Source of the DNA: Centroscyllium fabricii
Lineage: Eukaryota
Direction: 5' to 3'
Length of the DNA: 64,000 nucleotides
Assembly (NCBI GenBank): GCA_051313645.2
Contig: JBNRSN020000020.1
Location: forward strand, 69,502,001 to 69,566,000
Positions 3,424 to 31,660 of this stretch are shown here, piece after piece. How positions within the stretch are numbered: position 1 is the stretch's first letter; each line of letters starts with the position of its first letter. A model generated the notes under the pieces. It did no database searches. It worked only from the letters and a program-made list of their open reading frames with translations, and was not told the DNA's origin. The position numbers and the translations under genes are program-made.

Positions 3424-3549
3424 ATTGTGTGGTGTCATGAGTCTTGTGGTGTGTGGAGCAAGTGGCAGTGTACGACCATCTTCCCTCTTGTATCAACCTG
3501 CATCTTCATCTGTGTGAGCTTTTAGGAAGGGCTTTCAGACTTCCAAGTA

Positions 3550-3877
3550 CAGGTTGAGCACCGGTAATCCGGCCACCGATGGTCCGGCACCTTCAGTGGT
3601 TCGGCACAAATCGAAACCGGCGGTCTTCAGTTTGCGGAGCAGCCGCTCGGCAGTGCCATCGTTTCCCGCGAAGGGTGGGCGAGCGCCGAAGGCACTGGGC
3701 GTTTGGGTTTTTGCTTTTTAGTGTTCTACCCGCGCGCTCCGGGCCCTGGGGAGTGTTCTACCCGTGCGCACCGGGCCCCGGGGAGTGTTCTACCCCCAAA
3801 CCTTCAGTGATTCAGAATTTTCAATGGTCCGGCACCGGCATGGTCCCGAGGGTGCCGGATTGCCGGTGCTCAACCTG
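3550..3877. mobile_element. Tigger-like MITE (same family as 1055-1372, opposite orientation)
   Basis: CAGGTTGAGCACCGG TIRs, TA TSD. Confidence 0.85.
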
Positions 3878-5183
3878 TACTCTCCCAGCAATATGTGGAG
3901 GTCATGCACCACTCACTAACTGACCTATATCCCACAGATACTTAATCCAACAATAATAAAACCACAATTGCTACACCTCAGACAATGTAAGCGGATATTT
4001 TCCTTAAAGGGAAAGGACCTTTTTAAATGTATGTAACTTCTGAAAAACATTAGACACTGTCAACCTGGTAATTTTTCTTATTCTAGTTACACTCCTCCCA
4101 TCTTGACAGGATCCCTGAATTCTTTTGGAATCTTGGACCAAAAGTGGATTATGGGGTCAGAATTTCCTCTGCATGTCTGTTTCTGCAGTGAACGACAATG
4201 ATTGCCAGGATTTCTAGGGAAAATAATGCAGATATTTTTGGAGAGGAATCTTGGCAGATATTTTGTTCAGCGTACGAACAATCAATTTATTTTAAGGTCT
4301 CGGCTTGCGGGTGTTACAGTTTACGTCCGGATTTGCTGTCGGAGGTGTACCTCCGCAGTACGCCTCCGACCCGAATTTTTTTTCCAAAAGTACCTGCTGG
4401 CTCCCGGGCTTCAGAGTCCTCGGAACTCGGGCCTCCAGGCGTACACCCATGTAAAGGCCCACGTGATCCCAGGGACGCAGGCGGCTCAGAAGAGTCCCTG
4501 GGATCACGTGGGCAGGACAACCAATTGGAAAGGGGGATTCCTCATAAGCTTATGGGGATTCTATTTACGAACAGAATCTCCATAAGCTTATGAGAAATCC
4601 CCAAATAAATAAATAATTAACAGAATTCCAATAAAAATAAATATTCCCATGTTTAAAATTAATTTAAAGTCCCTTTAATTTAGCATTTAAAATAAAAATG
4701 TAATTTTTTGAAAAATAATTTTAAACATTTTAATCTGGGCCAAAATGTACATGAACTCATTTTGAATATTTTTGTATGTTTTAATCATTTAATTTTTTTT
4801 AATTTAACCCGTACGCTGGTAAAAGCAGGTTTTGTGGGCATTTGCTAGGCAGTAGTTGGGCAAATAGCTCAACTTTGCGTCAGCCAATGTGTTTTTTGGT
4901 CGTAGGTGAACTTTGACAGATCGCTAGTTCCGGGTTTATAAGCATGCGCTGCTCATGCGGAGGTCCGGAACTTGCGGGGCCATTCTAAGGGCTTGCGGCG
5001 GAGTACGCTGTGCGTACGCCGTCATCGGCCCGCAAAATCAGCGCTGTTGCACGGCCAGTTCCCAACAATCGTAAGGTTCCAAGGAACGCTAATACGTACA
5101 TATGTAGCAGGAGCTATATTGGTAAGCTAAATGCTACATACCGGTAAACAATATTCTCTGCAATCGCAACATAACAAGAACCT

Positions 5184-8100
5184 TGTGACCGAAATAACGA
5201 CCTCGTGGACGAGTAGTTAGAAGGGTGAAACAATACGGCTTTTATTCGCTAAATGGTGGACATGCACCAGCTAGTCGACCGTCCCCAGGAATGGCTGGGG
5301 GATGGGAGACGGCCGCTTATATACCTCCTCCTGGGAGGGAGGAGTCACGGGCGGAGCCAGCGTGGGCATGTCCAGGTAATCGCACAATAGGTTATGTACA
5401 ACATGAATATAGGTATGATTACAGAGATACATAACGGGGTGGGTATGTACAAGGAAACAGTGGTTTACCACATTCACCCCTTCTTTAAAACAAAAGTCCG
5501 GCGGGGCGAACGCGACAGTTCCTTTAATTTACAAATTAAGTCGCTCCGGCGGCCTGGTGATCCTGGTTGAGCGTCGCACCGCTGGTGGTGTCAGCGGTCG
5601 TGGAGTGGCCGGTCGGGTTGGTTGCATCAATGGTGATGATGCCGGTTGGCGGGCGGTGGTTGATAACGTCGGTTGGTTTCTGGTTGGTGCCCTTGCAGTG
5701 ACAGTAGGAGGCGCGCTCTCTCCCTCGTCATCTGACTCTAGGGGGCGTGTACTGTGGAGCCATGCTGGAGGCCATGCCGTGCTGCCCGCAGGTGCCAGGT
5801 GGACGTACCGGGGTGCTGGGTTCTCGTGCCGGGGAGCGTACATTGGCGCCGGTGGCCCGGGAGGAGTGGCTGGCCTCGGTGGCCCGGGTGGAGTGGCTGG
5901 CCGTCTTGGGTGCGCGAGCTGCTGGGTGGGGCTGGGTTTGTGGGCTCCCGCTGGCGCCAGGTCCTTGATGGACACGGTGTCCTCCCTCCCGTCGGGATAC
6001 GCCACGTAGGCGTACTGGGGATTGGCGTGCAGGAGGTGGACCCGTTCGACCAGGGGATCTGCCTTGTGGCCCCTCACGTGCTTCTGTAGTAGGACTGGTC
6101 CCGGGGATAGCAGCCAGGATGGTAGCGAGGTCCCGGAAGCCGACTTCCTGGGGAAGGCAAAAAGTCGCTCGTGAGGGGTGGCATTAGTGGCCGTACACAG
6201 GAGGGACCGGATGGAGTGGAGCGCTTCAGGGAGGATGTCCTGCCAGCGGGAGACTGGGAGGCCTTTAGACCGTAGGGCTAACAGGATGGCCTTCCAGACA
6301 GTGGCGTTCTCCCTCTCTACCTGTCCGTTCCCCCGGGGGTTGTAGCTGGTAGTCCTGCTAGTCGCGATGCCTTTGGCTAGCAGAAACTGACGCAGCTCGT
6401 CACTCATTAAGGACGCCCCCCGGTCGCTATGGATATAGCTGGGATAGCCGAACAGGGAGAAGATGCTGTGGAGGGCTTTGATGACAGTGGCGGAGGTCAT
6501 GTCCGGGCAGGGGATGGCAAAGGGGAAGCGGGAGTACTCGTCAATGATGTTGAGGAAGTACACGTTCCTGTTGGAGGAGGGAAGGGGTCCTTTGAAGTCG
6601 ACGCTGAGTCGTTCAAAGGGGCGAGTGGCCTTGATCAGATGCGCCCGGTCTGGCCGATAGAAGTGCGGCTTGCATTCCGCACAGACCTGGCAATTGCTGG
6701 TCATGGTCTTGACCTCCTCGATGGAGTAGGGGAGGTTGCGGGACTTCACAAAGTGAACCAACCTAGTGACCCCCGGGTGGCAGAGGTCATTGTGTAGGGT
6801 TTGGAGGCGGTCTGTCTGTGTGCTGGCACATGTACCGCGGGATAGGGCGTCTGGGGGTTCGTTAAATTTCCCGGACCGGTACAAGATATCGTAATTGAAC
6901 GCCGAGAGCTCAATTCTCCACCTTAATATCTTGTCGTTCTTGATTTTACCCCGCTCTTTGTTGTTGAACATAAAAGCGACTGAGCGTTGGTCAGTCAGCA
7001 GGGTAAATCGCTTGCCGGCCAGGTAGTGCTTCCAGTGACGCACTGCTTCAACGATGGCCTGGGCCTCCTCGACTGAGGAGTGACGGCTCTCGGGGCCATG
7101 AAGGGTACGCGAGAAGAAGGCCACGGGTCTGCCCGCCTGGTTAAGGGTGGCGGCCAGGGCAAAGTCCGATGCATCGCTCTCTACCTGGAATGGGACGGAC
7201 TCGTCCACGGCGTGCATCGTTGCCTTCGCAATGTCATCCTTAATGCCGCAGAACGCCACGCGGGCATCTGCTGACGGGAAATGAGGTGGATTTAAGCAGT
7301 GGGCGAGCTTTGTCCGCGCAATTGGGGACCCACTGGGCATAATAGGCAAAGAAACCCAAGCACCGTTTAAGGGCCTTGGGGGAGTGGGGGAGGGGGAGCT
7401 CCATGAGGGGGCGCATGCGGTCCGGGTCGGGACTGATGACCCCATTCTCCACAACACTGCCGAGGATGGCAAGGCGGGTGGTACTGAACACACATTTTTC
7501 AGTGTTATACGTCAGATTGAGTGTTTTGGCGGTGTGGAGAAATTTCTGGAGGTTGGCATCATGGTCCTGCTGATCGTGGCCGCAGATGGTCACGTTATCG
7601 AGATACGGGAAAGTGGCTCGCAGCCCGTACTGATCGACCATTCGGTCCATCTCCCTTTGGAAGACCGAGACCCCATTCGTGACGCCAAACGGGACCCTGA
7701 GGAAGTGGTAGAGGTGGCCGTCAGCCTCGAAGGCAGTATAGAGACGGTCCTCTGGGCGAATGGGAAGCTGGTGATATGCGGACTTCAGATCTATGGTGGA
7801 GAACACCCGGAACTGCGCGATCTGATTCACCATGTCCGCTATCCGGGGGAGGGGGTATGCGTCTAGCTGGGTGAACCGATTGATGGTCTGATTATAGTCC
7901 ACTACCATCCGGTTCTTAGCTCCGGTCTTTACCACCACTACCTGCGCCCTCCAGGGGCTATTACTGGCCTCGATAACCCCCTCCTTCAGGAGGCGCTGCA
8001 CCTCGGACTTGATAAAGTCCATGTCCCCAGCACTGTAGCGCCTACTCTTGGTGACGACGGGCTTGCAGTCTGGGGTGAGGTTGGCAAAGAGCCAGGGAGG

Positions 8101-9828
8101 GGCGACCTTAAGGGTCGAGAGGCCACAGGTAGCGCGCCGGGGCTGCTGCACCGAGCGCCGGTTGCTGACCGTGAGCGAGGGAAGGGGCCCACCATATGCC
8201 ATGGTAATGCTTTGGAGATGGCACTGGAAGTCCAGACCCAATAATAATGGAGCGCAGAGCTGCGGCAGCACGTAAAAGCTAAAGTTACTAAAGTGCACGC
8301 CCTGCACCGTTAGAGCCACTGCGCAACGCCCAGAGACGTCCGCAGATTCCGATTTGGAAGCCATTGAAATCTTTTGGCTCGCTGGCATAACCTTAAGGGA
8401 GAGGCGCTTTACTGTCTCAGGATGAACAAAACTCACCGTGCTCCCACTGTCGAAAAGGCACACCACGTCCTGTCTGTTCACTCCCACCGGCATCATCGAT
8501 TTCCCGAGTGATTGGGTCTTGTTCTGGTCCAGAGTCACCGATGCCAATATTGGATCAGACGATTCCTCTTGATCCGGCGAGAAGTCCTCTGGGGCCGGTT
8601 CCCAAGATGGCTGCCGCAATGCGGTGTACTGCAGAGGGGGTGGCTGGGTCCAATATGGCGACTGCTGCCACGCGGGGTGCTGAGTGGGGGATGGCTGAGT
8701 CCAATATGGCTGCCCCCATGTTCCACACGCGGCACTGTCCGGTTTCGGTTTAGGGGCTGTGATCGCCTTACAGACTTTAGCGTAATGTCCCTTCTTTCCA
8801 CATTTTGAGCAGGCCGCTTCTCTTGCCAGGCAGCTGCGTCTCGGATGCTGAGACTGCCCGCAGAAGTAACATTTTGCCGTCTTAGCATGAGCGGCTGCGA
8901 TCATTTCTTCTGCCGGCCGTTGTGCCGGCGCTGCCCAAGATGGCGGGGCTGGGCCCGTATAGTTGCCGGAGTATGATGATAGGTTTAGTGAGGCCACGTC
9001 CAGTGCATTGCCCAGCGCATTGCCCAGATCCGCTGTTGCCTGCAGGTCAAGGCCGTTCTGTTCTAACAGCCTCTGTCTGATATAGTCCAACCTGAGGCCT
9101 GTAACATATGCGTCTCTGATTAGACTGTCCACATGGATCTGGGCCAATTGTGCTCTGCAGTCACAGGCCCGTGATAGCACTCTCAGCGCTCTTAAAAATT
9201 CCACGCTGGACTCACCGGGTTGCTGCATCCTGGTGGCTAGGATGTGTCTGGCGTGGACGATATTGGGTGCCCGGTTGTACTCTGCCTTGAGGATCCTGAT
9301 AGCATCCAAGAATGATGATGCGTCCACGATCATGGAGTACACCTGAGGGCCCACCCGGGCGTTGAGGAGCCGCCGTTTGTCCTCTTCGGTCCTGACGACC
9401 GCTGCGTTCGTTCTCAGGTACGCATCGAAACAGTCATACCAGTGCGAGAATGTGTTTGATGCGCCTGGTGTCCGGGGATCCAATTCAAACGTTGCTGGCT
9501 TGAGCATTCCGTCCATCTTCAAAATTTAGCGAATAAAATTGTGACCGAAATAACGACCTCGTGGACGAGTAGTTAGAAGGGTGAAACAATAAGGCTTTTA
9601 TTCGCTAAATGGTGGACATGCACCAGCTAGTCGACCGTCCCCAGGAATGGCTGGGGGATGGGAGACGGCCGCTTATATACCTCCTCCTGGGAGGGAGGAG
9701 TCGCGGGCGGAGCCAGCGTGGGCATGTCCAGGTAATCGCACAATAGGTTATGTACAACATGAATAAAGGTACGATTACAGAGATACATAACGGGGTGGGT
9801 ATATACAAGGAAACAGTGGTTTACCACA
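5184..9828 (-). mobile_element. Full-length Ty3/Gypsy LTR retrotransposon, family A copy 1 (Mag-like gag)
   Basis: 289-bp LTRs 5184-5472 and 9540-9828 (TG..CA, about 5 mismatches), 5-bp TSD AACCT, PPT AAGAAGGGGTGAA at 5473-5485. Confidence 0.97.
5529..9516 (-). pseudogene. gag-PR-RT-RNaseH-IN polyprotein of A1, one frameshift near 7275
   Basis: Zn knuckles CYFCGQSQH..C..CSKCGKKGHYAKVC, protease LFDSGS, RT IDLKSAYHQ..PFG..YLDN, RNaseH ESDASD, integrase H..H..C..C, VDFKGP, HSDRG, GQVERE. Confidence 0.93.
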
Positions 9829-10588
9829 AACCTATCAGTCAATTTTATTACAGTAGAAAATCTGTTCTGCACAGAGAGAGAAGGGGTGGTTATTTTTTCC
9901 ATCTGTATTTGCATACAAATCATTTTTTATTTTTTTCTCTGTATATGTTTAAAAGTGAAGCAAGGAAGAATGCTTTTCCAGAAACATAATAACCTTAGAT
10001 GATCCCTTACACTATTTTGCTTCTTAAAGATTGTACATTTTTAACTTTAATGCACATTTAACTATCAGATTTACATCCTGCCAACATTGTGTTCACCTGA
10101 CACTTCATACGTTAATACCTTACAGATGTGACCAGGCTGTATACACTTGGGTGTTATTGTGTGAAAGGAAGTCAGAAGAATGAGTTGTTGGGTGGGCGTA
10201 CTGGGTAGGCTGTTCCCTTATAGTTTTAACAGTGAATGATGGCATCGTCGGTGGAATTGGCTAGGATGAGTTACTAAATTAACACCAGTAGGTACAGCCA
10301 TTAACTCAGCATGCTTCAGCTGGTGTGTCATTTCAACTGTGCAGATTAATTCAGCTTCCTCACAGTAGTCAACATGGTAAGAGCTCCAAGACAGTTCCCT
10401 GTTGATGATTTGGCTCTTGTCATCTACCCAATTATTTTTTTAATAATAAAAACAGTATAAGAATAAAAGGATGTTGTCTAAATGGTTTACAAATGATTGC
10501 AGTTTTTAAATAATGCATTGCTGGAGAGATTCTCTCTTTTTAAGGGGTATATTTTCTGATTTGTGAAGTTTATTTATCGATGCTTGTA

Positions 10589-11031
10589 CAGGTTGAGCAC
10601 CGTTAATCCGGCACCCTCGGGACCAGGCCGGTGCCGGACCACTGAAAATTCCGAACCACTGAAGATTCGAGGGTCGGAGCCCGCGGTATAACACTCCCCG
10701 GGGCCCGGAGCGCGCGGTAGAACACTCTCCGGGGCCCGGAGCGCGCGGGTAGAACACTCCCCGGGAGGGAGCCCGGGGATAGAACACTCCCCGGGGCCCA
10801 GAGCGCGCGGGTAGAACACTCCCCGGAAGGGAGCCCGGGGATAGAACACTTACAAGACCTGAAAAAACAGAAACCCAAACACCAGATGCCTTCGGCGCTC
10901 GCTCACCCTTCGCGGGAAACTGTGGCGCCGCCGAGCGGCTGCTCCACAAAATGAAGAGCGCCGGTTTCCAATCATGCCGGACCACTGAAGGTGCCGGATC
11001 ATCGAATGCCGGATTAACGGTGCTCAACCTG
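10589..11031. mobile_element. Tigger-like MITE with about 6 internal 31-bp repeats
   Basis: CAGGTTGAGCACCGTTAATCCGGCA TIRs, TA TSD. Confidence 0.85.
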
Positions 11032-12128
11032 TACTGCCTTCATTTGTGCTCTGCTTTAAACAGATGTAAACCCTGGAATTTAGGTATAAATCCTTTGCGT
11101 GCTCGCACAACATTCCACTCTCTGGTATTATGAGGCAGATATTAATGCATATAAAATAAACTAATTCATGCCTGCCTAAAAGTAGCTCACAGAGGAATAT
11201 AGTATGAAGACGCCAAATATTTAGAGCTGAACATTGCCTTTTGGAAAATGTTCAGGGTAAATTAAGTTTTCATTGGTCTTAAAATGGAGGTCAAATTTGA
11301 GTGAAATCTGATAATTTTATCCAGCCCTTTCTACAAATGCAGTAAGGATATTTGTTGCATAGCTACGAATGAAATTTTAATAATCCCCAACACATTGAAT
11401 TATTTTTGGTATTAGTCTAACATTGACAGTAGGACAGCCCCAGTTTTAATGAGCACAAAGGTTTGAGCTTGAAGTCAGACATTCCTTCTAATAGAGACTC
11501 CTTTCATTATTTGCTTTGATTAGATTTCTCTTTTTTCTTGTTGCCAATTCTGTGCAGTATGATTTTTGCATAAAAGTTTACTGCATGTACCTATACTTTG
11601 TCATCATTTTCTTGTCAAACTAGTCAAATATAAATTTTATCATCTCTCTGCCGAAGAGAAAATATTGCCGGATTTGCATAAAATTGCAGAAACAAGTCAC
11701 TGCCAAAAGCAATGGGCTTACTTAACAGTTTTATTAAAAAAATGAATCACAACTCTCCCCGATGGCTGAAATGAATTTGCCCAGTGTGTAGCTGAGCCAT
11801 TAAGATAAGAATGTCTGAGGTTGATCCCTTGTTTGTGCTGCGTTTAGCGGATTTCAGCCAGACTAGCCTTAAGTCCTAGAATTTGCTTTACCACTGTAAA
11901 TAAATACAATGTGGTAATTAACTAACCTTGTTAGATTTAGGATGGGGAACATTGGTCAGTGGTTGTGCCCCTGATCGGTCTCTAGCAACCATTGTTTGAA
12001 GAGCTCATTGGTTGGGTCCAGCTGAATACAAGATTGCCTCAGATGTGATGGCCCTGTTGTTCAGTAACCTGCTGACAATCACTATTGAGGTGTAGCTTTC
12101 AAAAGCTCTGAATTAATTGGTCTGTGAC

Positions 12129-15100
12129 TGTGGTAAACCACTCTTCTATGTATTATAAGTATATCCATTCACTCTGTCTTGTATATATATATTGTTGTTG
12201 TAATCGTACTATTCACCATGTTGTATCATAGTTCATTGTATACGATTACCTGGACATGCCCATGCTGGCTCCACCTGCGACTCCTCCCTCCCGGGGCCAG
12301 GTACATAAGCGGCCGTCTCCCATCCCCCTGCCATTACTGGGGACGGTCGACTAGCTGGTGCATGTCCACCTTTAGTGAATAAAAGCCGAATTGTTTTACC
12401 CTCTTAACTACTCGTCCACGAGGTCGTTATTTCGGTCACAATTTTATTCACTAAATTTGACGATGGACGCAATGCTCAAACCAGCAAAGTTCGAGCTGGA
12501 CCCCCGGACACCAGGTGCATCAAATACCTTTTCACACTGGTTCGACTGTTTCGATGCGTTCATGAAGGCGAACGCAGCGGTCGTCAGGACCGAAGAAGAC
12601 AAACAGCGGCTCCTCAACGCCCGGGTGGGCCCTCAGGTATACTTCATGATCGTAGATGCATCATCGTACTCGGATGCAATCGGGATCCTCAAGGCGGAGT
12701 ACAACCGGGCACCCAACATCGTCTACGCCAGACACCTCCTGGCTACCAGAAAACAGCAACCCGGTGAGTCCAGCGTGGAATTCCTACGCGCGCTGAGACT
12801 AATTTCCCGGGCCTGTGACTGTAAACAGCAATTGGCCAAGGTCCACGCGGACAATCTAATCAGGGACGCGTATGTGACGGGCCTCAGGTCGGACTAAATT
12901 AGACAAAGGCTGTTAGCGCAGAACGGCCTTGACCTGCAGGCAACAGCGGACCTGGGCAACGCGCTGGATGCGGCATCACTGAATTTATCGTCATATTCTG
13001 GAAACTCCATGGGCCCAGCCCCGACAAATTGGACACCGCCGGTGCCACGGCCGGCGGAAGAAATGACTGCGGCCGCTCGCTCTAAGACGGCCAAATGCTA
13101 CTTCTGCGGGCAGTCTCAGCATCCGAGACGGAGCTGCCCGGCGAGAGACGCGACCTGCTCGGAATGTGATAAAGGGGGACACTGTGCCAAAGTCTGCAGA
13201 GCAACTGCAGCACCGCAACCGAAACCGGGCAGCGCCGTGTGTGGGACATGGGGGCAGCCATCTTGGACACTGCCATCCTCAACACAGCCCACCGCGTGGC
13301 AGCAGACGCCATCTTGGTCTCAGCCACCCCCTCCGCAGTACACCACATGGCAGCAGCCATCTTGGGACCAGGCCCCAGACGACTACTCTACGGATCAAGA
13401 CGACTCGACCGATCCGGTACTAGCTTCAGTCACCCTGGACTAAAACAAGACACAACCACTTGGGAAGTCGATGATGATGGTGGAAGTGAACGGGCAAGAC
13501 GTTGAGTGCCTCTTCGACAGCGGGAGCACGGTGAGTTTTGTCCACCCTGCAACAGTAAGGCGCCTCTCCCTTAAGGTTATGCCAGCGAGCCAAAAGATAT
13601 CCATGGCATCAAAATCAGAATCCGCGGACGTCTCCGGACGTTGCGCAGTGGCTCTAACGGTACGGGGCGTGTACTTTAATAATTTTAAATTTTTCATGCT
13701 GCCGCAGCTCTGCGCTCCATTGTTATTGAGCCTGGACTTCCAGTGCCATCTCCAAAGCGTTACCATGGCGTACGGTGGGCCTCTTCCCCCACTCACGGTC
13801 TGCAACCGGCGCTCGGCGCAGCATCTGCAGCGCACTACCTGTGGCCTCTCGACCCTTAAGGTCGCCCCTCCCTCGCTATTTGCTAACCTCACCCCAGACT
13901 GCAAGCCCGTCGCCACCAAAAGTAGGCGCTACAGTACCGGGGACATGGACTTCATCAAGTCCGAGGTGAAGCGCCTCCTGAGGGAGGGGGTTATCGAGGC
14001 CAGTAACAGCCCCTGGAGGGCGCAGGTAGTGGTGGTGAAGACCGGAGCTAAGAACCGGATGGTAGTGGACTATAGCCAGACCATTAACCGGTTCATCCAG
14101 TTGGACGCGTACCCCCTTCCCCGGATAACGGACATGGTAAATCAGATCGCGCAGTTTCGGGTCTTCTCGACCATCGATCTGAAGTTCGCGTATCACCAAC
14201 TCCCCATTCGCCCAGAGGACCGTCTCTATACGGCCTTCGAGGCTGACGGCCGCCTCTATCACTTCCTCAGGGTTCCATTTGGCATCACGAATGGGGTCTC
14301 GGTCTTCCAAAGGGAGATGGACCGAATGCTCGATCAGTACGGGCTATGAGCCACTTTCCCGTATCTCGATAATGTGACCATCTGCGGCCACGATCAGCAG
14401 GACCATGACGCCAACCTCCAGAAATTTCTCCACACCGCCAAAACACTCAACCTGACCTATAACACAGAAAAATGTGTGTTCAGGACCACCCGCCTCGCCA
14501 TCCTCGGCAGTGTCGTGGAGAATGGGGTCATCGGTCCCGACCCGGACCGCATGCGCCCCCTCATGGAGCTCCCCCTCCCCCACTCCCTCAAGGCCCTCAA
14601 AAGGTGCCTGGGATTCTTCGCCTATTATGCCCAGTGGGTCCCCAACTATGCGGACAAAGCTTGCCCACTACTCAAATCAACCTCATTCCCCCTGTCAGCA
14701 GATGCCCGCGCGGCGTTCTGCGGCATTAAGAATGACATTGCAAAGGCAACGATGCACGCTGTGGATGAGTCCGTCCCGTTCCAGGTTGAGAGCGATTCAT
14801 CGGACTTTGCCCTGGCCGCCACCCTTAACCAGGCGGGCAGACCCGTGGCCTTCTTCTCACGTACCCTCCAGGGCCCCGAGACCCGTCACTCCTCAGTCGA
14901 GAAGGAGGCCCAGGCCATTGTTGAAGCAGTGCGTCACTGGAAGCACTACCTGGCCGGCAAACGATTTACCCTGCTGACTGACCAACGCTCAGTCGCTTTT
15001 ATGTTCAACAACAAAGAGCGGGGCAAAATCAAGAACGACAAGATATTAAGGTTCAGAATTGAGCTCTCCACGTTCAATTATGATATCTTGTACCGGCCCG

Positions 15101-16787
15101 GGAAACTCAACGAACCCCCAGACGCCCTATCCTGTGGTACATGTGCCAGCGCACAAGTAGACCATCTCCAAACCCTGCACAACGACCTCTGCCACCTGGG
15201 GGTCACCAGGTTGGTTCACTTTGTGAAGTCCCGCAACCTCCCCTACTCCATCGAGGAGGTCAAGACCATGACCAGCAACTGCCAGGTCTGTGCGGAGTGC
15301 AAGCCGCACTTCTTTCGGCCAGACCGGGCGCATCTGATCAAGGCCACCCGCCCCTTTGAATGACTCAGCGTCGATTTTAAAGGGCCCCTTCCCTTGGCCA
15401 ATATGAACGTGTACTTCCTTAATGTCATTGACGAGTACTCCCGTTTCCCCTTTGCCATCCCCTGCCCAGACATGACCTCTGCCACTGTCATCAAGGCCCT
15501 TCACAGTATTTTCTCCCTGTTCGGCTACCCCAGCTACATCCATAGCGACCGGGGGGCCTCTTTCATGAGTGACGAGCTGCGTCAGTTCCTGCTAGCCAAA
15601 GGCATCGCTGCTAGCAGGACTACCAGCTATAACCCCCAGGGGAACAGACAGGTAGAGAGGGAGAATGCCACGGTCTGGAAGGCCATCCTGTTAGCCCTAC
15701 GGTCTAAAGGCCTCCCAGTTTCCCGCTGGCAGGACGTCCTCCCCGAAGCGCTCCACTCCATCCGGTCACTCCTTTGTATGGCCAATAATGCCACCCCTCA
15801 CGAGCGACTTTTTGCTTTCCCCAGGAAGTCGGCTTCCGGGACCTCGCTGCCATCGTGGCTATCATCCCCGGGACCGGTCCTACTCCGGAAGCACGTGAGG
15901 GGCCACAAGGCAGACCCCCTGATCGAACGGGTCCACCTCCTGCACGCCAATCCCCAGTACGCCTACGTGGCGTACCCCGACGGTAGGGAGGACACCGTGT
16001 CCATCAAGGACCTGGCACCAGCGGGGGCCCCCAAAACCCCCCCACCCAGCAGCCCATGCCCCCGCACCCGCCAGCCACCCCACCCGGGCCACCGGTACCA
16101 AGGTACGCTCCCCGGCACGAGAATCAGGCACCACGGTACGTCCGCCTGGCATCTGTAGGCAGCACGGCATGGCCTCTGGCATGGCTCCATAGTGCACGCC
16201 CCCTAGAGTCAGACGATGACGGGGAGAGCGCGCCGCCAACTGTCACCGCAAGGGCACTGACGAGGGACCAACCGACTCAATCAGCTATCGTACGCCCACC
16301 GATATCATCACCAGCGGTGCGATCAACACAACCGGCTACTTCACGTCCGCCAACACCACCAGCGGTGCGCCGTTCCACCAGGCTTACCAGGCCGCCTGAG
16401 AGACTAAATCTATAAATTGAAAGAACAGTCGCACTCACCCCGCCGGACTTTCGTTTTAAAGAAGGGGTGAATGTGGTAAACCACGCTTCTATGTATTATA
16501 AATATATCCATTCACTCTGTCTTGTATATATATATATATTGTTGTTGTAATCGTACTATTCACCATGTTGTATCATAGTTCATTGTATACGATTACCTGG
16601 ACATGCCCATGCTGGCTCCACCTGCGACTCCTCCCTCCCGGGGCCAGGTACATAAGCGGCCATCTCCCATCCCCCTGCCATTACTGGGGACGGTCGACTA
16701 GCTAGTGCATGTCCACCTTTAGTGAATAAAAGCCGAATTGTTTTACCCTCTTAACTACTCGTCCACGAGGTCGTTATTTCGGTCACA
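12129..16787 (+). mobile_element. Full-length Ty3/Gypsy element, family A copy 2 (defective)
   Basis: LTRs 12129-12440 and 16472-16787, TSD GTGAC, PPT AAAGAAGGGGTGAA; gag ATG 12463, polyprotein broken by stops at about 12897, 13443, 14349 and 15363 and a frameshift near 16040. Confidence 0.97.
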
Positions 16788-16893
16788 GTGACTACACAAA
16801 CCACTCTGGGTACAGGTATATTGTACATAAGTAAAACAGGTTTATTAAGCATTAAATATCCAGTACAAAGAATTAATACTTGACAAGTAGATA

Positions 16894-17584
16894 CAGGTTG
16901 AGCACCGTTAATCCGGCACCCTCGGGACCAGGTCGGTGCCAGACTACTGAAAATTACGGACCACTGAAGGTTCGGGGGGAGCGCGTGGTAGAACACTCGC
17001 CGGGGCCCTGAGCGTGCGGTAGAACACTATCCGGGGCTCGGAGTGTGCGGTAGAACACTCACCGGGGCCCGGAACGCATGGTAGAACACTTCCTGGGGAC
17101 TGGAGCGCGCGATAGAACACTCCCTGGGGCCCGGAGTGCGTGGTAGAACACTCCCCGGGGACTGGAGCGCGCGATAGAACACTCCCCGGGGCCCGGAGTG
17201 CGTGGTAGAACACTCCCCGGGGCCCGGAGCACGCGATAGAACACTCCCCGGGGCCCGGAGCGCGTGGTAGAACACTCCCTGGGGCCCGGAGCGCATGGTA
17301 GAACACTCCCGGGGGCCCAAAGCACACGGTAGAACACTCCCTGGGGCCCGGAGTGCGCGGTATAACACTCCCCGGGAGTGAGCCCAGGGATAGAACACTT
17401 ACAAAACCTAAAAAAACAGAAATCCAAATGCCCGACGTTTTTGGCGCTCGCCCACCCACCCTTCACGGGAAATGATGGCACCGCCGAGTAGTTGCTCCGC
17501 AAAATGGAGACCACCGGTTTCCAATCGTGCCGGACCACTGAAGCTAACGGACCATCAGGTGCCGGATTACCGGTGCTCAACCTG
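16894..17584. mobile_element. Tigger-like MITE with expanded minisatellite
   Basis: Same TIRs and TA TSD as other copies. Confidence 0.85.
16985..17400. repeat. About 31-bp GC-rich minisatellite (GTAGAACACTCCCCGGGGCCCGGAGCGCGCG), about 13 units
   Basis: Direct head-to-tail repeats without unique spacers. Confidence 0.9.
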
Positions 17585-18126
17585 TAGTTGCAGTTTGTTC
17601 ATTGAACCCCGACGTTCCTTCCGAGTGACTGTGGAACGGTTTCTTTATTCACTTGCTGTGTTCTGTTGACTGAAGCTTCCCATCCTCTGGTTTTGCACTG
17701 CTTACTGTGTTCAATATCTTTTTTTCCCTTTTCAAAATACATAGCAACTTGCAGCTGCTTGGGCTATCTCACCATTCTGACTATCACAAGTACGGTCTAT
17801 GATTCCCTCCCCTTTTCTGCTGTGAGCTTTGAGTATGACAACTTTTACATATCTTTCACCTTTCCCATAGCCCATTATCGAGACTGGTCTGAAACGTCAG
17901 CGATAAGGGATGTTAGGTATTGAAAACCCTCTATCTTACTTTGAGACTTAATTAATGTTTTGTCCTTCACTGGCTTCTTGTTTTTAATATAACAGAAAAT
18001 CTACACGACCTCAGCACTATTCTCGCAGTGAACATAATGTTGGCTTAATTTTACCATCATGCTTTGGTCTCAGCCATTCGCCATTTTATACAGCCTTTTT
18101 AGGTTTTTAACATACAATTTCACATA

Positions 18127-19641
18127 CAGGATGGTCCGGCACCTTCAGTGGTCCGGCACGAATCGAAACCGGCGGTCTTGAGTTTGCGGAGCAGCCGCTC
18201 GGCGGCGCTACCATTTCCCGCGAAGGGTGGGCGAGCGCCGAAGGCGTCGGGCGTTTGGGTTTCTGCTTTTTAGTGTTCTATCCCTGGGCTCCCTCCTGGG
18301 CAGTGTTCTACCTGCGTGCTCCGGGCCCCGGGGAGTGTTCTACCCGTTAGGTTTACCTTCAAAAACGGAGGCAGAGGTGAAAGAGAAATACCGATTGTAG
18401 TGTATGTAATGGAGCTGCACTATTTGCTGTATGGCGAAGGAACACGGTAATACCTCCTCAGGCCACCCGGTATAAATAGTGCTGCACTACACACTGTATT
18501 CAGTTTCCTCCTGGTCCCCCATGAATAAACACCCTTCTTATTGTTACCCTGTGTCCGGGTCCGTAAGTAAATACTTAAAACTAGTATTAAGTATTTACTC
18601 ACGGACCCGGACACAGGGAACAATAAAAAGGGTGTTTATTCATGGGGGACCAGGAGGAAACTGAATACAGTGTGTAGTGCAGCACTATTTATACCGGGTG
18701 GCCTGAGGAGGTATTACCGTGTTCCTCCGCCATACAGCAAATAGTGCAGCTCCATCACATACACTACACCGATTAACAACCACTGCCAACTAGGCCAGGT
18801 GACGCAAGCGCTTTATTTGACTAAGCAAGACGGTGCAGCTCGGATGACGGTGAACCCCCCACCCTCATATCTCGCTCCCTGGGGCCACCGCCGCCGCCTC
18901 TGGTGTGTGTTTGGGGCAATCGGTGGAAACCGGAGCTGCGCCAATTCAAAGAGTCGCGCCGCTACCTTGGCATCGTCTAAAACCTCGACCTTTGTCGGGT
19001 CTGGCTCGAAGCAGAGGTCTTGTTCTCCTTTGCGAAATTTCAATTTCATTCCCCGAGTGTTCATTTGGTCATGATGGAGCTGGAGGATGAGGAGGGGGGG
19101 AGGATGAGGAGAAACAGTCAATGCAGCGACCAACCTCCCTCGTCGACGCACGGCTCAATGTTTTCATTTTACACAATCCTGGCCGATGCGTAGAGTTGGA
19201 GCGCTTGCGAGTGGCAACTGATCCAGATCCACAAGTCGCAGTCCACATTCTAAACGGGGTTTTCCCCAAAATGCAGGAGTCGCTTGGTGCCCGGGAATGT
19301 GAGTGCGCTGCCCCATCGGGAGTTTCAGCATCGGGCAAGGTGCTCCCTCCGGTGGCGAATACAATAATGACTGTCATTCTGCCTGGCTTGTGTCACAAGA
19401 CAACGACATTTGGCTGGACTTTGCGACCCCTGCGGGTGCCTATGAAGCACCTGCGCTGAAACCCAGCACTCGCAATCTGTCAATAATTCACAGATCATCC
19501 GCATGCCCAAGAAAATGGCCTCTGTGGGTGGAGAGTTGCGTTTTTTGCCCAACCCCAGCGTTAACCTTCAGTGGTTCGGAATTTTCAATGGTCCGACACT
19601 GGCCTGGTCCCGAGGGTGCCGGATTACCGGTGCTCAACCTG
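18127..19641. mobile_element. Tigger-like MITE carrying about 1.2 kb of extra internal sequence
   Basis: Left end TA-CAGG (TIR partly deleted) followed by MITE body to about 18347; MITE right arm resumes about 19563 and ends GTGCTCAACCTG-TA. Confidence 0.7.
18396..18768. mobile_element. Palindromic element made of two LTR-like arms joined tail-to-tail
   Basis: 373-bp near-perfect inverted repeat with no spacer, centred on ACTAGT (18580-18585); TG..CA ends; 5-bp TSD CCGAT; each arm has TATAAATA and AATAAA. Confidence 0.9.
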
Positions 19642-20218
19642 TATTATAGTTAGATAAAAATGGTTATAGAATCTTAACAATGTTTGCTAAATCCTACAGG
19701 TACACTCTATCCAGGTTCCCAAGTGAATACTTGGGTGAGTTATCAGAGGGTGATTAATGTTGTGTTTCCGATTCCTTGAGGTGTGTGTGAGGCAAATAAG
19801 ACACAGGCACAGTGCTTAAATAACAAAGGTCTTTACTTGATCGATATCCAGGTGGAAGCCCACTGATACATTTAGTGCAGCGCCTTTTATACACAGTGGC
19901 CTAAAGCTGCACTACAGTAACCTTCCCATATACAATATAGTTCCTTTACAGTTGCTATGCCATTGGCTCACAGGCTGATACAGCGGCTTTGCCATTGGCT
20001 CACAGACTGTCCATCATAGCCTATTCACATACACCACATCCCTCCCCTCTTACATGAGCACATCACCCCTCTTCTTTTTTTTCTTTTTTTTTAAACATCT
20101 TTAACAACAGTAAAATGAACATAATAACAATTTTACTTCTTACAACATGATTTCTAGTGACTCCTTACTTTAACATTTATCACAACATTATTTAGAGTCA
20201 ATGAATTTACTTTAACAT

Positions 20219-21046
20219 TCATCCCAAGCCCTGATATTTGCCATAAGGGTCCTCCTCTGTCGTTGGAAACGTGTTCATGTATAGTCCTTGAACGGGTTTG
20301 CCCGTGATTGGGTTAATCTTGGTGTCAGGATTAGTTGTCGTTGTCGTTGTCCGGCTCCTGGTGCTTTTGCAGGCTTTAGCCAGATGTCCTATCTTTCCAC
20401 ATCTTCGACACATCTTGTCGCGGGCCCAACAAACAGCTTGGTCATGGTTGTTACCCGCACAACAGAAACAGTGTTTAACATCCTGCAACATCTGGTTCGA
20501 TTGGTATTCGTGTTCCCGTGGTTTCTGTTTAATTTCTGCTGCACTTCTAACAGCTGACTCGTAGGACACCGCTATGTTGAAAGCTGCACCCAAGGTTAAT
20601 TCTTTCTTCGTCAAGAGAAGCTTTTGTGTGCATTCGCTAAGCAATCCACAAACAAACCTGTCTCTTAATAATTCTGTGCGCATCTCGCCATATTGGCAGC
20701 GATCTGCCAGTTTTCTTAGTTCCGCTATATATTCAGCATTTGACTCCCCGGTCTGCTGATCCCTGCGGTGAAATTTAAATCTTTCCGCTATTATCAATGG
20801 AGTAGGGTTGAGATGGTCTTTCATTAATTCGACTATTTGCGTATAGGTTTTGTCCATGGGTTTTTCTGGGGTTGCTAAACTTTTCAATAGTCCGTATGTT
20901 TTTGCACCCATCAAATTTAAAAGAGTAATCACTTTCCGGTCTTCTGCTATATTATTAGCTGCACAATAAATCTCAACCCTTTCAATATAAATGTCCCAGT
21001 TCTCGATGTCATTATCGAACGCTGCTACAGTAGGGACCTTTGTCAT
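20219..21046 (-). CDS. Intact Mag-type Gag (about 275 aa) with two Cys/His knuckles
   Basis: FDNDIENWDIYIERVEIYCAANNI..LLNLMG, IIAERFKFHRRDQQTGES, LRDRFVCGL, CFCCAGNNH..CRRCGKIGHLAKAC. Confidence 0.85.
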   Translation of the reverse strand: MTKVPTVAAFDNDIENWDIYIERVEIYCAANNIAEDRKVITLLNLMGAKTYGLLKSLATPEKPMDKTYTQIVELMKDHLNPTPLIIAERFKFHRRDQQTGESNAEYIAELRKLADRCQYGEMRTELLRDRFVCGLLSECTQKLLLTKKELTLGAAFNIAVSYESAVRSAAEIKQKPREHEYQSNQMLQDVKHCFCCAGNNHDQAVCWARDKMCRRCGKIGHLAKACKSTRSRTTTTTTNPDTKINPITGKPVQGLYMNTFPTTEEDPYGKYQGLG

Positions 21047-21720
21047 CCTCAATTATACTTATTTTCTTTTTCAATTTTTTTTTCAACTATTCAAAATGGC
21101 GCACGCCACGACGGTATTCTCGCGTTCTTTGTCGTTTTCAAAATGGCGTTTGCCACGACGGTGCTCTTCGCGCCCTTTTCTGTTTTTACAGTGGCGTTTG
21201 TGCAGGGAAAGCAAAGAAACGGCACCTTCCCGGTCCTTTCTTGCTTCCTCCCCGCTATGCCTGGTTCCTCCCGCGATCCCCGCGGTCTACTCGGTGGAGT
21301 GGCACTCCGTTTTCCGTGGTAGTGGTCTACCCCACCCCAGATACAGAGCCCGCCCTTTTAATACCACCGGGGGCTTCCCGAATAACCCGGATTAATTACC
21401 GTGGTTTCGGTCTCCTCGACTCCTGGTCGGCGATTGCCTCTGTCGTTCCCGATCCCCGGGTGCTGGAGAGTCAACACTGAACTCTCTACAGCTTCTCGAT
21501 GTTCTGTCGTTCCTGCCTTAGGGCTGCCTCTTTGATGGTCACCCCGTTCCTAGGCTTGTCTGTGCACTGTGTTGGGCTGCTGCTTTGGTGATCGCCCAGC
21601 CTCTGGTTCTGCCTCCAGGCCTTGTCCACGCAGTAGTTTTGTGGGCTGCTCCTTCGTTGGATGCCCCAGCCTCAGACTTTCACTGATGACTTACTGCAGG
21701 ATTCCTAGAGTTACCCGCTA

Positions 21721-21731
21721 TCTCGTCGCCA
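21721..21731 (-). promoter_or_regulatory. tRNA primer-binding site (tRNA-Ser GCU-like)
   Basis: TGGCGACGAG starts 1 nt after the 5' LTR; complementary to the ...CTCGTCGCCA 3' end of vertebrate tRNA-Ser(GCU) as I recall it. Confidence 0.7.
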
Positions 21732-22053
21732 CTGTTGTGTTTCCGATTCCTTGAGGTGTGTGTGAGGCAAATAAGACACAGGCACAGAGCTTAAATAACA
21801 AAGGTCTTTACTTGATCGATATCCAGGTGGAAGCCCACTGATACATTTAGTGCAGCGCCTTTTATACACAGTGGCCTAAAGCTGCACTACAGTAACCTTC
21901 CCATATAGAATATAGTTCCTTTACAGCTGCTATGCCATTGGCTCACAGGCTGATAGAGCGGCTTTGCCATTGGCTCACAGACTGTCCATCATAGCCTACT
22001 CACATACACCACAATTAACACCCATGGACTTGTCGGTCATTGCCTTCAGGAAT

Positions 22054-22397
22054 CATAGAATAGAATCTCTACAGTGCAGATAGAGGCCATTTCGGCCCAT
22101 CGAGCCTGCACCGACACATATCCCACCCTATCCCCGTAACCCCACATATTCCCACCCTATCCCCGTAATCCCCACATATTTAATCCTCCTAACACTAAGG
22201 GTCAATTTATCATGGCCAATCAACCTAACCCGCACATCTTTAGACTGTGGGAGGAAACCGGAGCACCCGGAGGAAACCCACGCAGACACGGGGAGAATGT
22301 GCAAACTCCACACAGATAATCACCCGAGGCCGGATTTGAACCCGGGCTCCTGGCACTGTGAGGCAACAGTGCTAACCATTATGCCACTGTGCCACCC
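22054..22397 (-). mobile_element. HE1-like V-SINE
   Basis: tRNA-like head (GGTGGCAC..TGGTTAGCACTG, GGTTCAAATCC), V-domain TGTGTGGAGTTTGCACATTCTCCCCGTGTCTGCGTGGGTTTCCTCCGGGTGCTCCGG, CR1-like tail. Confidence 0.85.
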
Positions 22398-27010: not shown

Positions 27011-30000
27011 TCTAATACCAAGGGCCCTGTTAGTTGTTGGCATTGCATAACAGTGATAGGGAGTGTGAGGGCAGCATAGTCAAATAGTGAAGTGATTCTG
27101 TGTAGCGTAGTCGCTAACTCAATTAAAAGGCGACTCGTAAGTACCGAAAATACAAGGCTTTTAATTGATAAAGAATGTAGCTAGTCTCCTTACAAGTTCA
27201 CATACAAGAATGAAGGGGCTGGGTCTGGCCACACCTTATATCGGTGTCCCCACCTGGGGAGGAGTCGAGGGTGTGGCTGACCTGGCTCCCAGCAGTACAA
27301 TGGCACTTATACAATGGTAGCCATATAAGGCAATGGTAACCATATAAGGGTTACCACATTCACCCCTTCTTAAAAACTTTGAGTCCGGGGGAGGGTGAAT
27401 GTACGGAACAGTTCATAATCAGTCTCTCCGGCGGTCGCGTTTGCCTTGCGGACCGCCGGGGTGCCGGTGTTGGTGGTGATGCCTCCATAGTCGAATAGCC
27501 CACCTCCGTTGGTGCTGTAAGTTCTGGACGTGGTGGGTTCTGCTGGACCTCGTCGTCTGGTGCATCGGCGGGGAAACTCGGGGCCCAACTTGTGTCTGGT
27601 GGTAGGTCGACCTGCTGGCCAGCAGGAGGCGCTGTGGCGGTGTTTCCTGCCGGGGCCAGGTCCCTGATGGATACGGTGTCCTCACGCCCGTCTGGGAACT
27701 GCACAAAGGCATAGTGCGGGTTGGCGTGTAGGAGCTGTACCTTGTCCACCAGGGGGTCCGTCTTGTGGCACCGAACGTGCCGCTTAAGGAAAACCGGCCC
27801 CGGAGTCGTCAGCCATGGTGGGAGCGCCGTCCCCGAAGTTGACTTCCTGTTGAAGGAAAAAACAAGATCGTGCGGGGTGGCATTAGTAGCAGTACATAAT
27901 AATGACCTGATAGAGTGCAGCGCGTCTGGGAGGACTGCCTGCCAATGGGACACTGAAAGGCCTCTGGACTTGAGAGCCAGGGTGACCGCCTTCCAAATGA
28001 TCCCATTCTCCCTTTCTACCTGGCCGTTCCCCCGGGGGTTATAACTGGTCGTCCTGCTTGTGGCAACCCCTTTCTGGAGCAGAAACTGGCGCAGTTCATC
28101 GCTCATGAACGATGACCCCCGGTCGCTATGGATGTAGCTGGGGAGACCGAAGATGGCGAACAGCGTGGTGAAGTGTTTGTTTACCGTTGTGCTCGTCATA
28201 TCTGGGCAGGGGAAGGCGAAGGGGAAGCGGGAGAACTCATCCACTACCGTGAGGAAGTATAAGTTGCGGTCGGTGGAGGGGAGGGGGCCTTTGAAGTCCA
28301 CGCTGAGACGTTCAAAGGGGCGGGTGGCCTTAATGATGTGCGCCGTGTCTGGCCGGAAAAAGTGGGGTTTGCACTCGGCGCAGACAGGGCAATCTCGGGT
28401 CATCTCCTTGATCTCCGTGATGGAGTAGGGGAGGCTACGTGATTTGACGAAATGGGCTAATCTGGTGACACCCGGGTGACAGAGGCGGTCGTGGAGATCC
28501 TTCAGCCGGTCTAGCTGGGCACTGGCGCACGTTCCCCTGGACAGTGCGTCCGGGGGTTCGTTGAGTTTGCCTGGTCGGTAAAGAATGTCGTACTCGTAAG
28601 TCGAGAGTTCGATCCGCCACCGCATGATCTTATCATTCTTGATTTTACCCCGTAGTTTATTATTAAACATAAACACCACCGGTCGGTGAGCAGGGTAAAA
28701 CGCTTACCGGCCAGGTAATGACGCCAGTAGCGCACGGCCTCCACGATGGCCTGGGCCTCCTTTTCCACTGCAGAGTGGCGAGTTTCGGGTCCCTGTAAGG
28801 TGCGGGAGAAAAACACTACGGGCCTGCCTGCCTGATTCAGGGTGGCAGCAAGAGCAAAGTCCGAAGTGTCACTCTCCACCTGGAAAGGGATGGATTCATC
28901 AACAGCGAGCATGGTCGCCTTGATGATATCTTCCTTTATCTTTTCGAATGCCTTTTGGGCTTCTATAGAAAGGGGGAAGAGTGCAGCCTTGAGGAGTGGT
29001 CTAGCCTTATCTGCGAACTGTGGGACCCATTGTGCATAGTAGGAGAAAAATCCTAGACATCTCCTCAAGGCTTTGGGGTTGTGAGGTAAGGGCAGTTCTA
29101 GCAGGGGTCGCATACGCTGTGGGTCGGGGCCGAGGAGCCCGTTCTCCACCACGTATCCGAGGATGGCGAGCCGGGTTGTATTAAAGACACACTTGTCTTT
29201 GTTATACGTAAGGTCCAGCTTAGCCGCCGTGGTGAGGAATTTGGCCAGATTGGCATCGTGGTCCTGCTGGTCGTGGCCGCAGATGGTCACGTTGTCCAGG
29301 TAGGGGAAGGTGGCCTGCAAGTCATTCTGGTCAACCATACGGTCCATCTCCCGCTGGAACACGGACACTCCGTTGGTCACGCCAAAGGGGACCCGGAGAA
29401 AGTGGTAGAGCCGACCGTTCGCCTCGAAGGCGGTGTAGGGGCGGTCGGCTTTCCGAATCGGGAGCTGATGATACGCCGACTTAAGGTCGATTGTGGAGAA
29501 CACCTTGTACTGGGCGATCTGGTTGACCATTTCTGAGATGCGGGGAAGGGGGTAGGCGTCGAGCCCGGTGTAGCGGTTGATAGTCTGGCTATAGTCGATC
29601 ACTAGCCGTTGTTTCTCACCAGACGTCACCACTACAACTTGGGCGCGCCAGGGGCTGGTGCTGGCTTCGATAATCCCCTCCTTCAGCATCCGCCCGACCT
29701 CCGACCTGATAAACGTGCGACCCCCCTCACTGTACCGCCGACTGGTTTGCACTTTGGGTCGAGGTTGGCGAACAGCGAGAGGGGGTCGATTTTCAGGGTG
29801 GAGAGGCCGCAGGCCGGGGTCCGCTTCGGGGGGAGATTGTCCCGGCTACTGAGGGTGAGGGGGGGTAAAGTCCCGCCGAACTCCATGGTCACGCTCTTGA
29901 AGTGGCACTGGAAATCCAAGCCTAGTAAGGCTGGGGCACACAACTTTTTGAGGGTATAGAATTTAAAATTGCGGTACACGCGTCCCTGGACGGTGAGCGT

Positions 30001-30249
30001 GACGGAGCAGTAGCCGGTGACGTCCGCGGTGTGGGACTGTGAAGCTAGGGACACTTGGTAGTTGGTGGGCAGGACCTGCAGCCCGAAACGCCGCACTCTA
30101 TCAGGGTCAATGAAACTCTCGGTACTGCCCGTGTCGAGGAGGCAGTCGACGGTATGGTTATTAATCCTAATACATATTAATGAATTAGACAAGTGATGGG
30201 GCTTGCTTTGGCTGACTGTAGTTGTAGCAGCCCCTGCTGATGGGGGCTG

Positions 30250-30770
30250 TGCACAAAATGGCGCCGCCCTTGACTCGCACATGGAGGGGCCCTGGATACA
30301 AAATGGTGCCGCCCCTGGCTCGCACATGGAGGGGCCCTGGGTACAAAATGGCGCCGCCCTTGACTCGCACATGGAGGGGCCCTGGGTACAAAATGGCGCC
30401 GCCCTTGACTCGCACATGGAGGGGCCCTGGGTACAAAATGGCGCCGCCCTTGGCTCGCACATGGAGGAGCCCTGGGCGCAAGATGGCGTCTTGCGTGGTT
30501 CGCACATGGAGGGGCCTGGGTTGCGGGGTAGCATTACTGCGAGGCCCTGATGCGTTGGCGGTGCCCGTGATTTGCACGCAGTGAACCGCGGTGAACGCGC
30601 TGGCGGTGCCCGTGATTCACATGCAGCTAACTGCGGTGAACGCGCTGGCGGTGCCCGTGATTCGCACGCAGCGAACCGCGGTGAACGCGCTGGCGGCGCC
30701 CGTGATTCGCATGCAGTGAACAGCGGTGAACGCGCTGGCGGCGCCCGTGATTCGCACGCAGCCGGCCGCG
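30250..30770 (-). repeat. Two in-frame 45-bp tandem arrays in the gag-protease spacer of B
   Basis: ACESRAPPARSPxF-type and MCESRAAPFCTQGPS-type 15-aa units. Confidence 0.9.
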
Positions 30771-31660
30771 TTGTAAGCTCACGTTTGGCCGGTTGCCGCT
30801 GCATCGAGGCGGGGGGAGGGGGCGCTTGCCGTCGCTGAATAGTACTGCAAATGCAGCTTACCTGGTGATAGTTGCTCTCACAGGCTGCATTGTACCTTTT
30901 AGATGCTGTGGCTGGAGTGGCTCTGCAGGCTTTGGCGAAGTGTCCCTTCTTGGAGCATTTTTCGCAGGTCGCCGTCTTGGCTGGGCATTTTGCTCTGGGG
31001 TGCAATCCTTGGCCGCAGAAATAGCAGTGTTTGAGCTTAGTGTCCGTGGTGGCCGTCGCGGCCATCGTGGGGCTCTCAATCCGTGACGCCTGTTGTGGTG
31101 CGGCCCATATGTTGTAGACTTGATGGCTGGTACCACCGTACGTCTGCGATTTATTCCGGGCCCCTTCCACTGATTTGGCTGACGTGGTTGCCTCCTCAAG
31201 GGTCAGATTGTCCTTTTCCAGTAGCCACTGACGGGCTACTGCACATCTTAGTCCTGAGACATAGGCGTCCCGGAGGAGGATGTTTTCTTCCTGTGCCTTG
31301 GTCAATCCACCCGTGCAGCCACAGGCCCGTATCATGCCCCGGAGCGCTTGCTCAAACTGGTCGTTTGACTCACCGGGTAGTTGAGATCGGGTCGCTAGTA
31401 GGTGGCGGGCGTAGACAGAGTGGACCGGGCGCTCATAGTACTGTTTGAGGGTCATCACCGTTTCCTCGTAGGTTATAAGGTCCTCGACAAGGGTGAAAAC
31501 CCTGCTGGAGACCTTGGATAGCAGGAGTTGGAGTTTGTCCTCGTCCGTGGTAGCCTTGGCTGCTGCCATATAGGCCTTTAGTAATCCAAACCAGTGCTTG
31601 AAGGTAGCTGGTGCCGCGTCATCCTGGGGGCTAATGTCCAGCTCCCTAGGTTTTAACTTG

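Follow-up and report, generated by a model that had tools for sequence, protein, structure and literature searches.

How two LTRs can come to lie tail to tail under a single TSD is the question raised by the locus at 18396-18768 of a 64-kb stretch of contig JBNRSN020000020.1 from Centroscyllium fabricii, the whole of which is referred to here as the window. The locus, a small and clean case of two inverted LTRs under one TSD, is a palindrome of 373 bp. On the plus strand, it begins directly after the left copy of the TSD, CCGAT (18391-18395), with a left arm of 187 bp (18396-18582), which by homology to the LTR of the element at 19758-22013 is an LTR in sense orientation, with its U3 outward and its U5 at the centre. 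This arm passes into a right arm of 186 bp (18583-18768), an LTR whose sense strand is the minus strand, and the right TSD copy follows (18769-18773), both TSD copies being read directly from the plus-strand sequence. The arms meet in ACTAGT (18580-18585), a U5-U5 junction holding no spacer, TSD copy or PBS remnant, and the outer termini of the palindrome are TG..CA. Five substitutions and one 1-bp indel separate the arms, which are 96.8% identical. The geometry given in the initial annotation, namely arms of 186-187 bp, zero spacer, the centre ACTAGT, TG..CA ends and the TSD CCGAT, turned out to be exact. Among TSD lengths from 2 to 20 bp only 5 bp fits, with a probability of 0.001 that a 5-bp match arises by chance at the local composition, and the palindrome does not run into its flanks, where 33 of 100 positions are complementary.

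Either strand of the palindrome folds into one hairpin (z -47 for the minus and -39 for the plus strand; none of 100 shuffles reached this stability). It holds no coding sequence, PBS, PPT or ORF, and its anatomy is that of a MITE: short, non-coding, built of terminal inverted repeats and flanked by a TSD. According to blastn and nhmmer, the palindrome is present as a single copy within the 64 kb, and no further copies of the arm were found in the window beyond its own two arms and the two LTRs of a neighbouring gag-only element. A shared LTR motif, searched for as a remote check on contamination by host DNA, had no matches in a bacterial and archaeal genome collection, a result without bearing on copy number. 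In regard to structured RNAs, Rfam gave four matches over 17800-22200, all below the gathering scores, and thus no known microRNA or structured RNA family. Three matches to microRNA models over the palindrome centre scored 46, 41 and 24 bits where the cut-offs are 90, 90 and 48; a microRNA identity of the centre was rejected, these sub-threshold matches being generic hairpin matches.

The palindrome is located inside an insert of about 1.2 kb that splits a TA-flanked MITE copy (18125-19646, plus strand) into the halves 18130-18345 and 19563-19643, which map to adjacent positions of an intact copy (3578-3795 and 3799-3879). Other copies of this MITE family lie at about 1050-1377, 3546-3881, 10586-11034 and 16892-17586, and the family carries a 31-bp internal repeat in variable number. 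About 190 bp from the palindrome there is an msl3-like first coding exon (18966-19064, minus strand) with a GT after it and with CpG-rich flanks. Its match to the Pfam MSL3_chromo-like model is below the cut-off (E 2.7e-5), and its match to PDB 3ob9/3oa6 (E 8e-9) includes non-conservative changes. Among 96 minus-strand ORFs of at least 30 aa in the downstream non-Gypsy stretches of the window, none matched an MSL3-type family and two gave weak unrelated matches; no ORF of at least 20 aa matched the presumed motifs of msl3 exons 2 and 3, and a word-based homologue search with the exon yielded no candidate. Since the exon and the palindrome sit in the same 1.2-kb insert splitting one MITE, the exon is, on sequence grounds, probably a captured and decaying fragment, with further exons possible beyond the window, and capture of a gene fragment by the split MITE is possible. 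The initial annotation had considered what the palindrome would form in an intron; with the only nearby exon sharing the split MITE and none of the 96 downstream ORFs being of MSL3 type, a hairpin within the intron of a working gene is doubtful. The convergent promoters that it also described are borne out by the anatomy, the promoters of the two arms facing each other.

Each arm is derived from an LTR, with U3 facing out. Both arms were aligned, locally and globally and in both orientations, to seven LTR sequences from six Gypsy elements, and the significance of each of the 56 comparisons was assessed with 500 dinucleotide shuffles. In eight comparisons (z 8.0-10.7) none of the 500 shuffles reached the score, and all eight were sense-orientation comparisons with the LTR from the gag-only element (19758-22013), whereas the best z among the remaining 48 was 2.3. 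With nhmmer, arm positions 10-166 matched the same LTR at E 1.6e-9 and 4.8e-9, and with blastn the identity was 69% over 129 columns. The likeness between the arms and this LTR, previously noticed only by eye, was thereby confirmed. The TATA box of the left arm (18471-18476, plus strand; arm position 76) aligns with that of the neighbouring LTR, and the polyadenylation signal AATAAA (18524-18529, plus strand; arm position 129) lies 53 nt past the TATA start, compared with 54 nt in the neighbour, in the order U3-R-U5. In the right arm, the corresponding signals are found on the minus strand, AATAAA at 18635-18640 and the TATA box at 18688-18693. The TATA box of each arm is flanked by an inverted 12-bp motif (18414-18491), through which one arm by itself can form a weak fold (z -2.3; 3 of 200 shuffles), and a similar inverted motif surrounds the TATA box in the LTR of the gag-only element. 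Because the PBS-like site, the purine tract and the Gag ORF of the gag-only element fix its orientation, U3 is outward in both arms, and the layout U3-R-U5 followed by U5-R-U3 holds, homology being confined to the sense orientation. With an identity of only 69%, the gag-only element is a relative, and the parent LTR therefore lies outside the window.

This nearest relative of the arms is a non-autonomous Ty3/Gypsy element on the minus strand, with LTRs of 281 bp (21733-22013 and 19758-20038) that differ at five positions, a PBS-like site downstream of the 5′ LTR, a purine tract upstream of the 3′ LTR and the 5-bp TSD ATTAA. Its gag ORF (20219-21046) encodes zinc knuckles and matches Retrotrans_gag below the cut-off, and no pol was seen within 19758-22013. 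The ORF is open over 275 aa and preceded by a leader of about 680 nt, the best relatives of the Gag are 52% identical, and the PBS appears complementary to the end of a serine tRNA. In total, six Ty3/Gypsy elements with paired LTRs are present in the window (Pol domains identified by profile search), and the TSDs of all six are 5 bp long and all differ in sequence. In five of the six (5184-9828, 12129-16787, 27101-36468, 31661-36173 and 46189-51119), the 13-15 nt directly after the 5′ LTR are the reverse complement of the element's own polyA-signal region, and this match is kept across divergent Gypsy families, which suggests that such a stretch, instead of a tRNA PBS, could serve for self-priming or could mask the 5′ polyA signal. 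The element at 31661-36173, with identical LTRs and an open Gag-Pol frame of 1285 aa, is nested inside another young Gypsy element (27101-36468), and this nested pair is a trace of very recent activity. In two related Gypsy elements, the coding region that separates the zinc knuckles of Gag from the protease contains tandem repeats of 45 bp (30194-30773 and 47413-47731). By its repeats, the window looks like DNA of a vertebrate, probably of a cartilaginous fish.

Inverted structures are found elsewhere in the window as well. A second palindrome, with arms of about 520 bp that are about 90% identical and a 43-nt spacer, extends over 45970-46188 and 51120-51974 and is interrupted by the Gypsy element at 46189-51119. 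No TSD was found for it. The frame at 51447-51590 reads like what we take to be the tail of a GIY-YIG endonuclease, broken by stops, and the structure is probably an inverted pair of Penelope-like 3′ ends. Two short adjacent hairpins, with arms of 20 bp and 33 bp, lie at 4457-4513 and 4533-4602.

The family of the arm LTR and the completeness of the arms can be judged from their ends. Mag C LTRs start with TGTNATRT, end with AYANAACA and have a mean length of 174 bp (PMC3601003, Table 1). The arm start agrees with the 5′ motif at seven of eight positions, the 3′ end of the neighbouring gag-only LTR fits the 3′ motif, and the arm, at 187 bp, compares with the Mag C mean of 174 bp; judged by these LTR motifs, the arm LTR probably belongs to the Mag group (Mag C). 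The distance from AATAAA to the inner arm end is 53-54 nt, compared with 44-74 nt in six real LTRs of the window. When the inner 6-mer is compared with the reverse complement of positions 3-8 of the outer end, five of six bases agree, as at the true end of the neighbour; this level is reached by four of the 183 6-mers in the arm, one of them at the inner end. Judged by these features, the arm looks near full length, that is, an almost whole LTR. A complete 3′ integrase motif ending in CA is absent at U5, the inner ends running into the centre. The partial match of the inner to the outer end points to two LTR ends that each lack about two bases and have the central TA in common. The nhmmer match, on its part, stops at arm position 166 and LTR position 239, 42 nt before the end of the neighbour's LTR, where 74 nt follow the polyA signal; the arm could lack as much as about 20 nt of U5, instead of about two, and the centre could then be a natural U5 micro-palindrome.

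In regard to the mechanism leading to such a structure, we propose, with about as much belief as doubt, that the palindrome is a tail-to-tail LTR dimer, a by-product of reverse transcription that was inserted by a Gypsy integrase through its two U3 ends. An integrase origin of the dimer is in itself, among the ideas tested, somewhat more probable than improbable, which we infer from the intact TG..CA outer ends and the 5-bp TSD shared with the Gypsy elements of the window, while an inherited TSD would look identical. The TSD length is that of Gypsy integration in this window, 5 bp in the palindrome and in six of six elements. In a first step, recycling of the primer in the particle would free plus-strand strong-stop DNA of LTR length, ending at U5. 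For the subsequent joining of the U5 ends at the central TA, two routes are conceivable: in (a), one molecule would fold back and copy itself, after which the second strand would be synthesised; in (b), two LTR-length molecules would be joined before integration, with a variant in which two separate U3 ends are inserted at one staggered cut and the host repairs the break at TA. Finally, integrase supplied in trans by an autonomous relative would insert the product with a 5-bp stagger. With a substrate of LTR length, a junction at the LTR end would be expected, which a random genomic switch would not predict. Having no PBS, PPT or ORF, the dimer is most likely a dead end that does not copy itself by the normal route. 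What weighs against this origin is that the parent LTR is outside the window and its nearest relative is 69% identical, so the true U5 end is taken from relatives only.

The substrate for such a process exists in a related system. In Ty3, recycling of the primer gives rise to a second plus strand, which has its end at U5 and becomes displaced, and the particles accumulate dead-end strong-stop DNA (PMC5371799); by analogy, such DNA could have been used at this locus. The earlier proposal of a fold-back of plus-strand strong-stop DNA therefore stands as far as the substrate is concerned, as described for Ty3 (PMC5371799), but not as the sole route, since other routes lead to the same sequence: two-molecule joining, or an in-place inverted duplication of a solo LTR, would give an identical final product. 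From a fold-back, a hairpin would result in which one U3 end is open, so that another hairpin or the synthesis of a second strand would be needed as well. Because a single hairpin has one U3 end, and because the differences between the arms are unlike later decay, we lean slightly towards route (b) over the fold-back. Joining by reverse transcriptase at two bases is known in vitro, where tails of T/A only are described as poor clamping substrates (PMC3035444, section 14), which weakens the case for such joining at TA. Capping of the hairpin by attack of a processed U5 end was rejected, as it would leave CA at the centre.

At all four transitions between the arms, the purine strand has A as the 3′ neighbour (GA/AA), and all four lead to G-U pairs on the minus strand, while none of the five substitutions is at a CpG. 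As controls, this transition context was found at 0 of 10 in the six LTR pairs, 1 of 19 in the second palindrome and, in a LINE tail pair, 2 of 3. With any shared neighbour together with shared polarity allowed for, a permutation gave p 0.004, for a pattern that was noticed post hoc and has n=4. One site could be polarised in the alignment with the neighbouring LTR, and there G appears ancestral. Ordinary decay fits the pattern less well than either A-to-G editing of a minus-strand hairpin RNA or C-to-T change at TC on a single DNA strand, and the pattern hints that the arms differed at birth.

The best surviving alternative to the integrase origin, unlikely if still plausible, is an in-place inverted duplication, in which a solo LTR with an old 5-bp TSD would have been duplicated in an event of the 3-2-1-4 type, with no integrase acting on a dimer. 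In this model, a replication template switch would occur near U5, with return via the short terminal inverted repeat of the LTR; that this repeat would permit such a switch, with an identical sequence and the old TSD as the outcome, weighs against the integrase origin. No new retroelement chemistry would be needed to explain the TSD, the exact ends or the zero spacer. Events of the 3-2-1-4 type are described as yielding single inverted repeats (PMC7954356), and leading-to-lagging switching at short inverted repeats has support in yeast (PMC10766183). However, a reverse tract of 186 nt would be required here, whereas tracts in the great-ape gold-standard set, which was obtained with a short-range method, have a median of 12 nt and reach at most 128 nt (PMC7954356), and nothing places the first switch at or near the LTR end. 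Furthermore, arms made in this way would be identical at birth and diverge by ordinary decay, yet no substitution lies at a CpG and the transitions share one context, which is unlike such decay, small as the numbers are.

It is rather improbable that the palindrome belongs to an amplified MITE-like family, in which one LTR-born palindrome would be moved as a unit, through an RNA copy or by an enzyme specific for TG..CA, the candidate movers being a Ginger-type transposase or a Gypsy integrase. Its short, non-coding and fully inverted form with a TSD would suit such a family, as would ends that fit TGTNR and an arm length inside the range of Ginger TIRs (PMC2836005). On the other hand, the window contains one copy, the TSD of 5 bp differs from the 4-bp TSDs that Ginger1 and Ginger2 of animals are described to make (PMC2836005), and the PBS and PPT are absent for an RNA route. 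The one-strand differences between the arms would fit editing of a hairpin RNA or inheritance from a master copy, but G as the apparent ancestral state at the single polarisable site speaks against A-to-G change.

A double insertion, with two full elements inserted in opposite orientation at one site, each then reduced to a solo LTR and the centre deleted, is very improbable. Inverted tandems of LTR elements have been described in Drosophila, one of them with a target-like junction motif (PMC5932611), and the model would account for arms differing from birth. However, neither CCGAT nor its complement is present in the centre, whereas a target-site copy at the junction would be predicted (PMC5932611), four or more separate events would be required, and nothing in the six Gypsy TSDs, all of different sequence, speaks for targeting of a specific site.

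Zero-spacer palindromes are a known artefact of long reads, but the palindrome is real, and an assembly or library fold-back is an unlikely, indeed almost negligible, source of it, because the arms differ at six positions, the inversion ends precisely at TG..CA within non-complementary flanks that carry the TSD, and the host MITE resumes in register on either side.

Comparison with known systems places the palindrome between several of them. TRIM/SMART elements are non-coding and have two short LTRs as direct repeats around a PBS and a PPT, with a 5-bp TSD. The palindrome shares with them the lack of coding sequence, the two short LTRs and the TSD length, but membership is ruled out by the inverted arms and by the absence of a spacer, PBS and PPT. 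Elements of the DIRS type have inverted repeats without a TSD, as well as RT and tyrosine recombinase, and membership among these is ruled out by the TSD and the lack of coding sequence. A solo LTR of a Mag C-type Ty3/Gypsy element (PMC3601003) would resemble it in the TG start, the TATA box, AATAAA, the short length, the 5-bp TSD and the homology to a real LTR; unlike such a solo LTR, the palindrome has two inverted LTRs under one TSD, and its inner ends fall short of the complete 3′ integrase motif.

Ginger1 and Ginger2 DNA transposons, their non-autonomous copies included, share with the palindrome the TGTNR ends (here TGTAG) and inverted repeats within 40-270 bp (PMC2836005), features that are common to Gypsy and not diagnostic. 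As a rule, however, Ginger1 makes a 4-bp TSD of CCGG or CCGT/ACGG, and Ginger2/TDD in animals a 4-bp TSD in RTATAY targets, whereas the TSD of the palindrome has 5 bp and is not CCGG or CCGT, and its target is not RTATAY; TDD-4/5 of Dictyostelium are given as having 5-bp TSDs (PMC2836005). With 5 bp alone fitting, membership in Ginger1 or animal Ginger2 is ruled out. In contrast to Ginger transposons, the palindrome has neither a transposase nor a spacer, and its arms keep the promoter and polyA anatomy of an LTR. In the Discussion of the Ginger paper, the TIRs of Ginger1 are proposed to come from two LTRs in opposite orientation, the route from LTR to DNA transposon being called unclear (PMC2836005). 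The palindrome has the same two-inverted-LTR geometry, but no integrase gene.

Rover-type inverted tandems formed by double insertion likewise hold two opposite LTR-family units at one site (PMC5932611), whereas the junction of the palindrome has no target-site copy and there is no internal sequence. Penelope-like elements possess inverted pseudo-LTRs with palindromic junctions, read as a sign of self-priming (PMC3846280), and resemble the palindrome as inverted repeats made by a retroelement; they differ in their enzyme and their variable TSD, the arm of the palindrome being homologous to a Gypsy LTR. When LTR ends are joined aberrantly in particles or by end-joining, two-LTR junction and autointegration products arise (PMC7197481), but these are full-length cDNA in circular form, with LTRs in tandem or with inversions, and not a chromosomal LTR-only U5-U5 dimer. 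In the open-access literature searched, which does not include repeat-database reports, no title or opening of an abstract described an LTR-only tail-to-tail dimer under one TSD. From its sequence, the palindrome looks like a Gypsy integrase product in its workings and a MITE in its appearance.

Copy number is the fact that decides between a rare accident and a recurring product. As a single copy, the palindrome would be a curiosity, a solo LTR that was rearranged, and its importance would be modest. It is possible, but doubtful, that a Gypsy family repeatedly makes and integrates LTR-only palindromic dimers, giving a dispersed MITE-like class with intact U3 ends that is perhaps re-mobilised. 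If such dimers do recur, they would be living intermediates between LTR and TIR, such as have been proposed for how Ginger1 arose, by-products of strong-stop DNA would be reaching the germline genome, and some palindromic repeats classed as DNA transposons would be retro-derived. Each copy would at the same time be a ready-made 180-bp dsRNA hairpin against the parent family, so that a retrotransposon could seed hairpins able to silence itself, and the class as a whole would show how an element that copies through RNA takes the shape of a DNA transposon.
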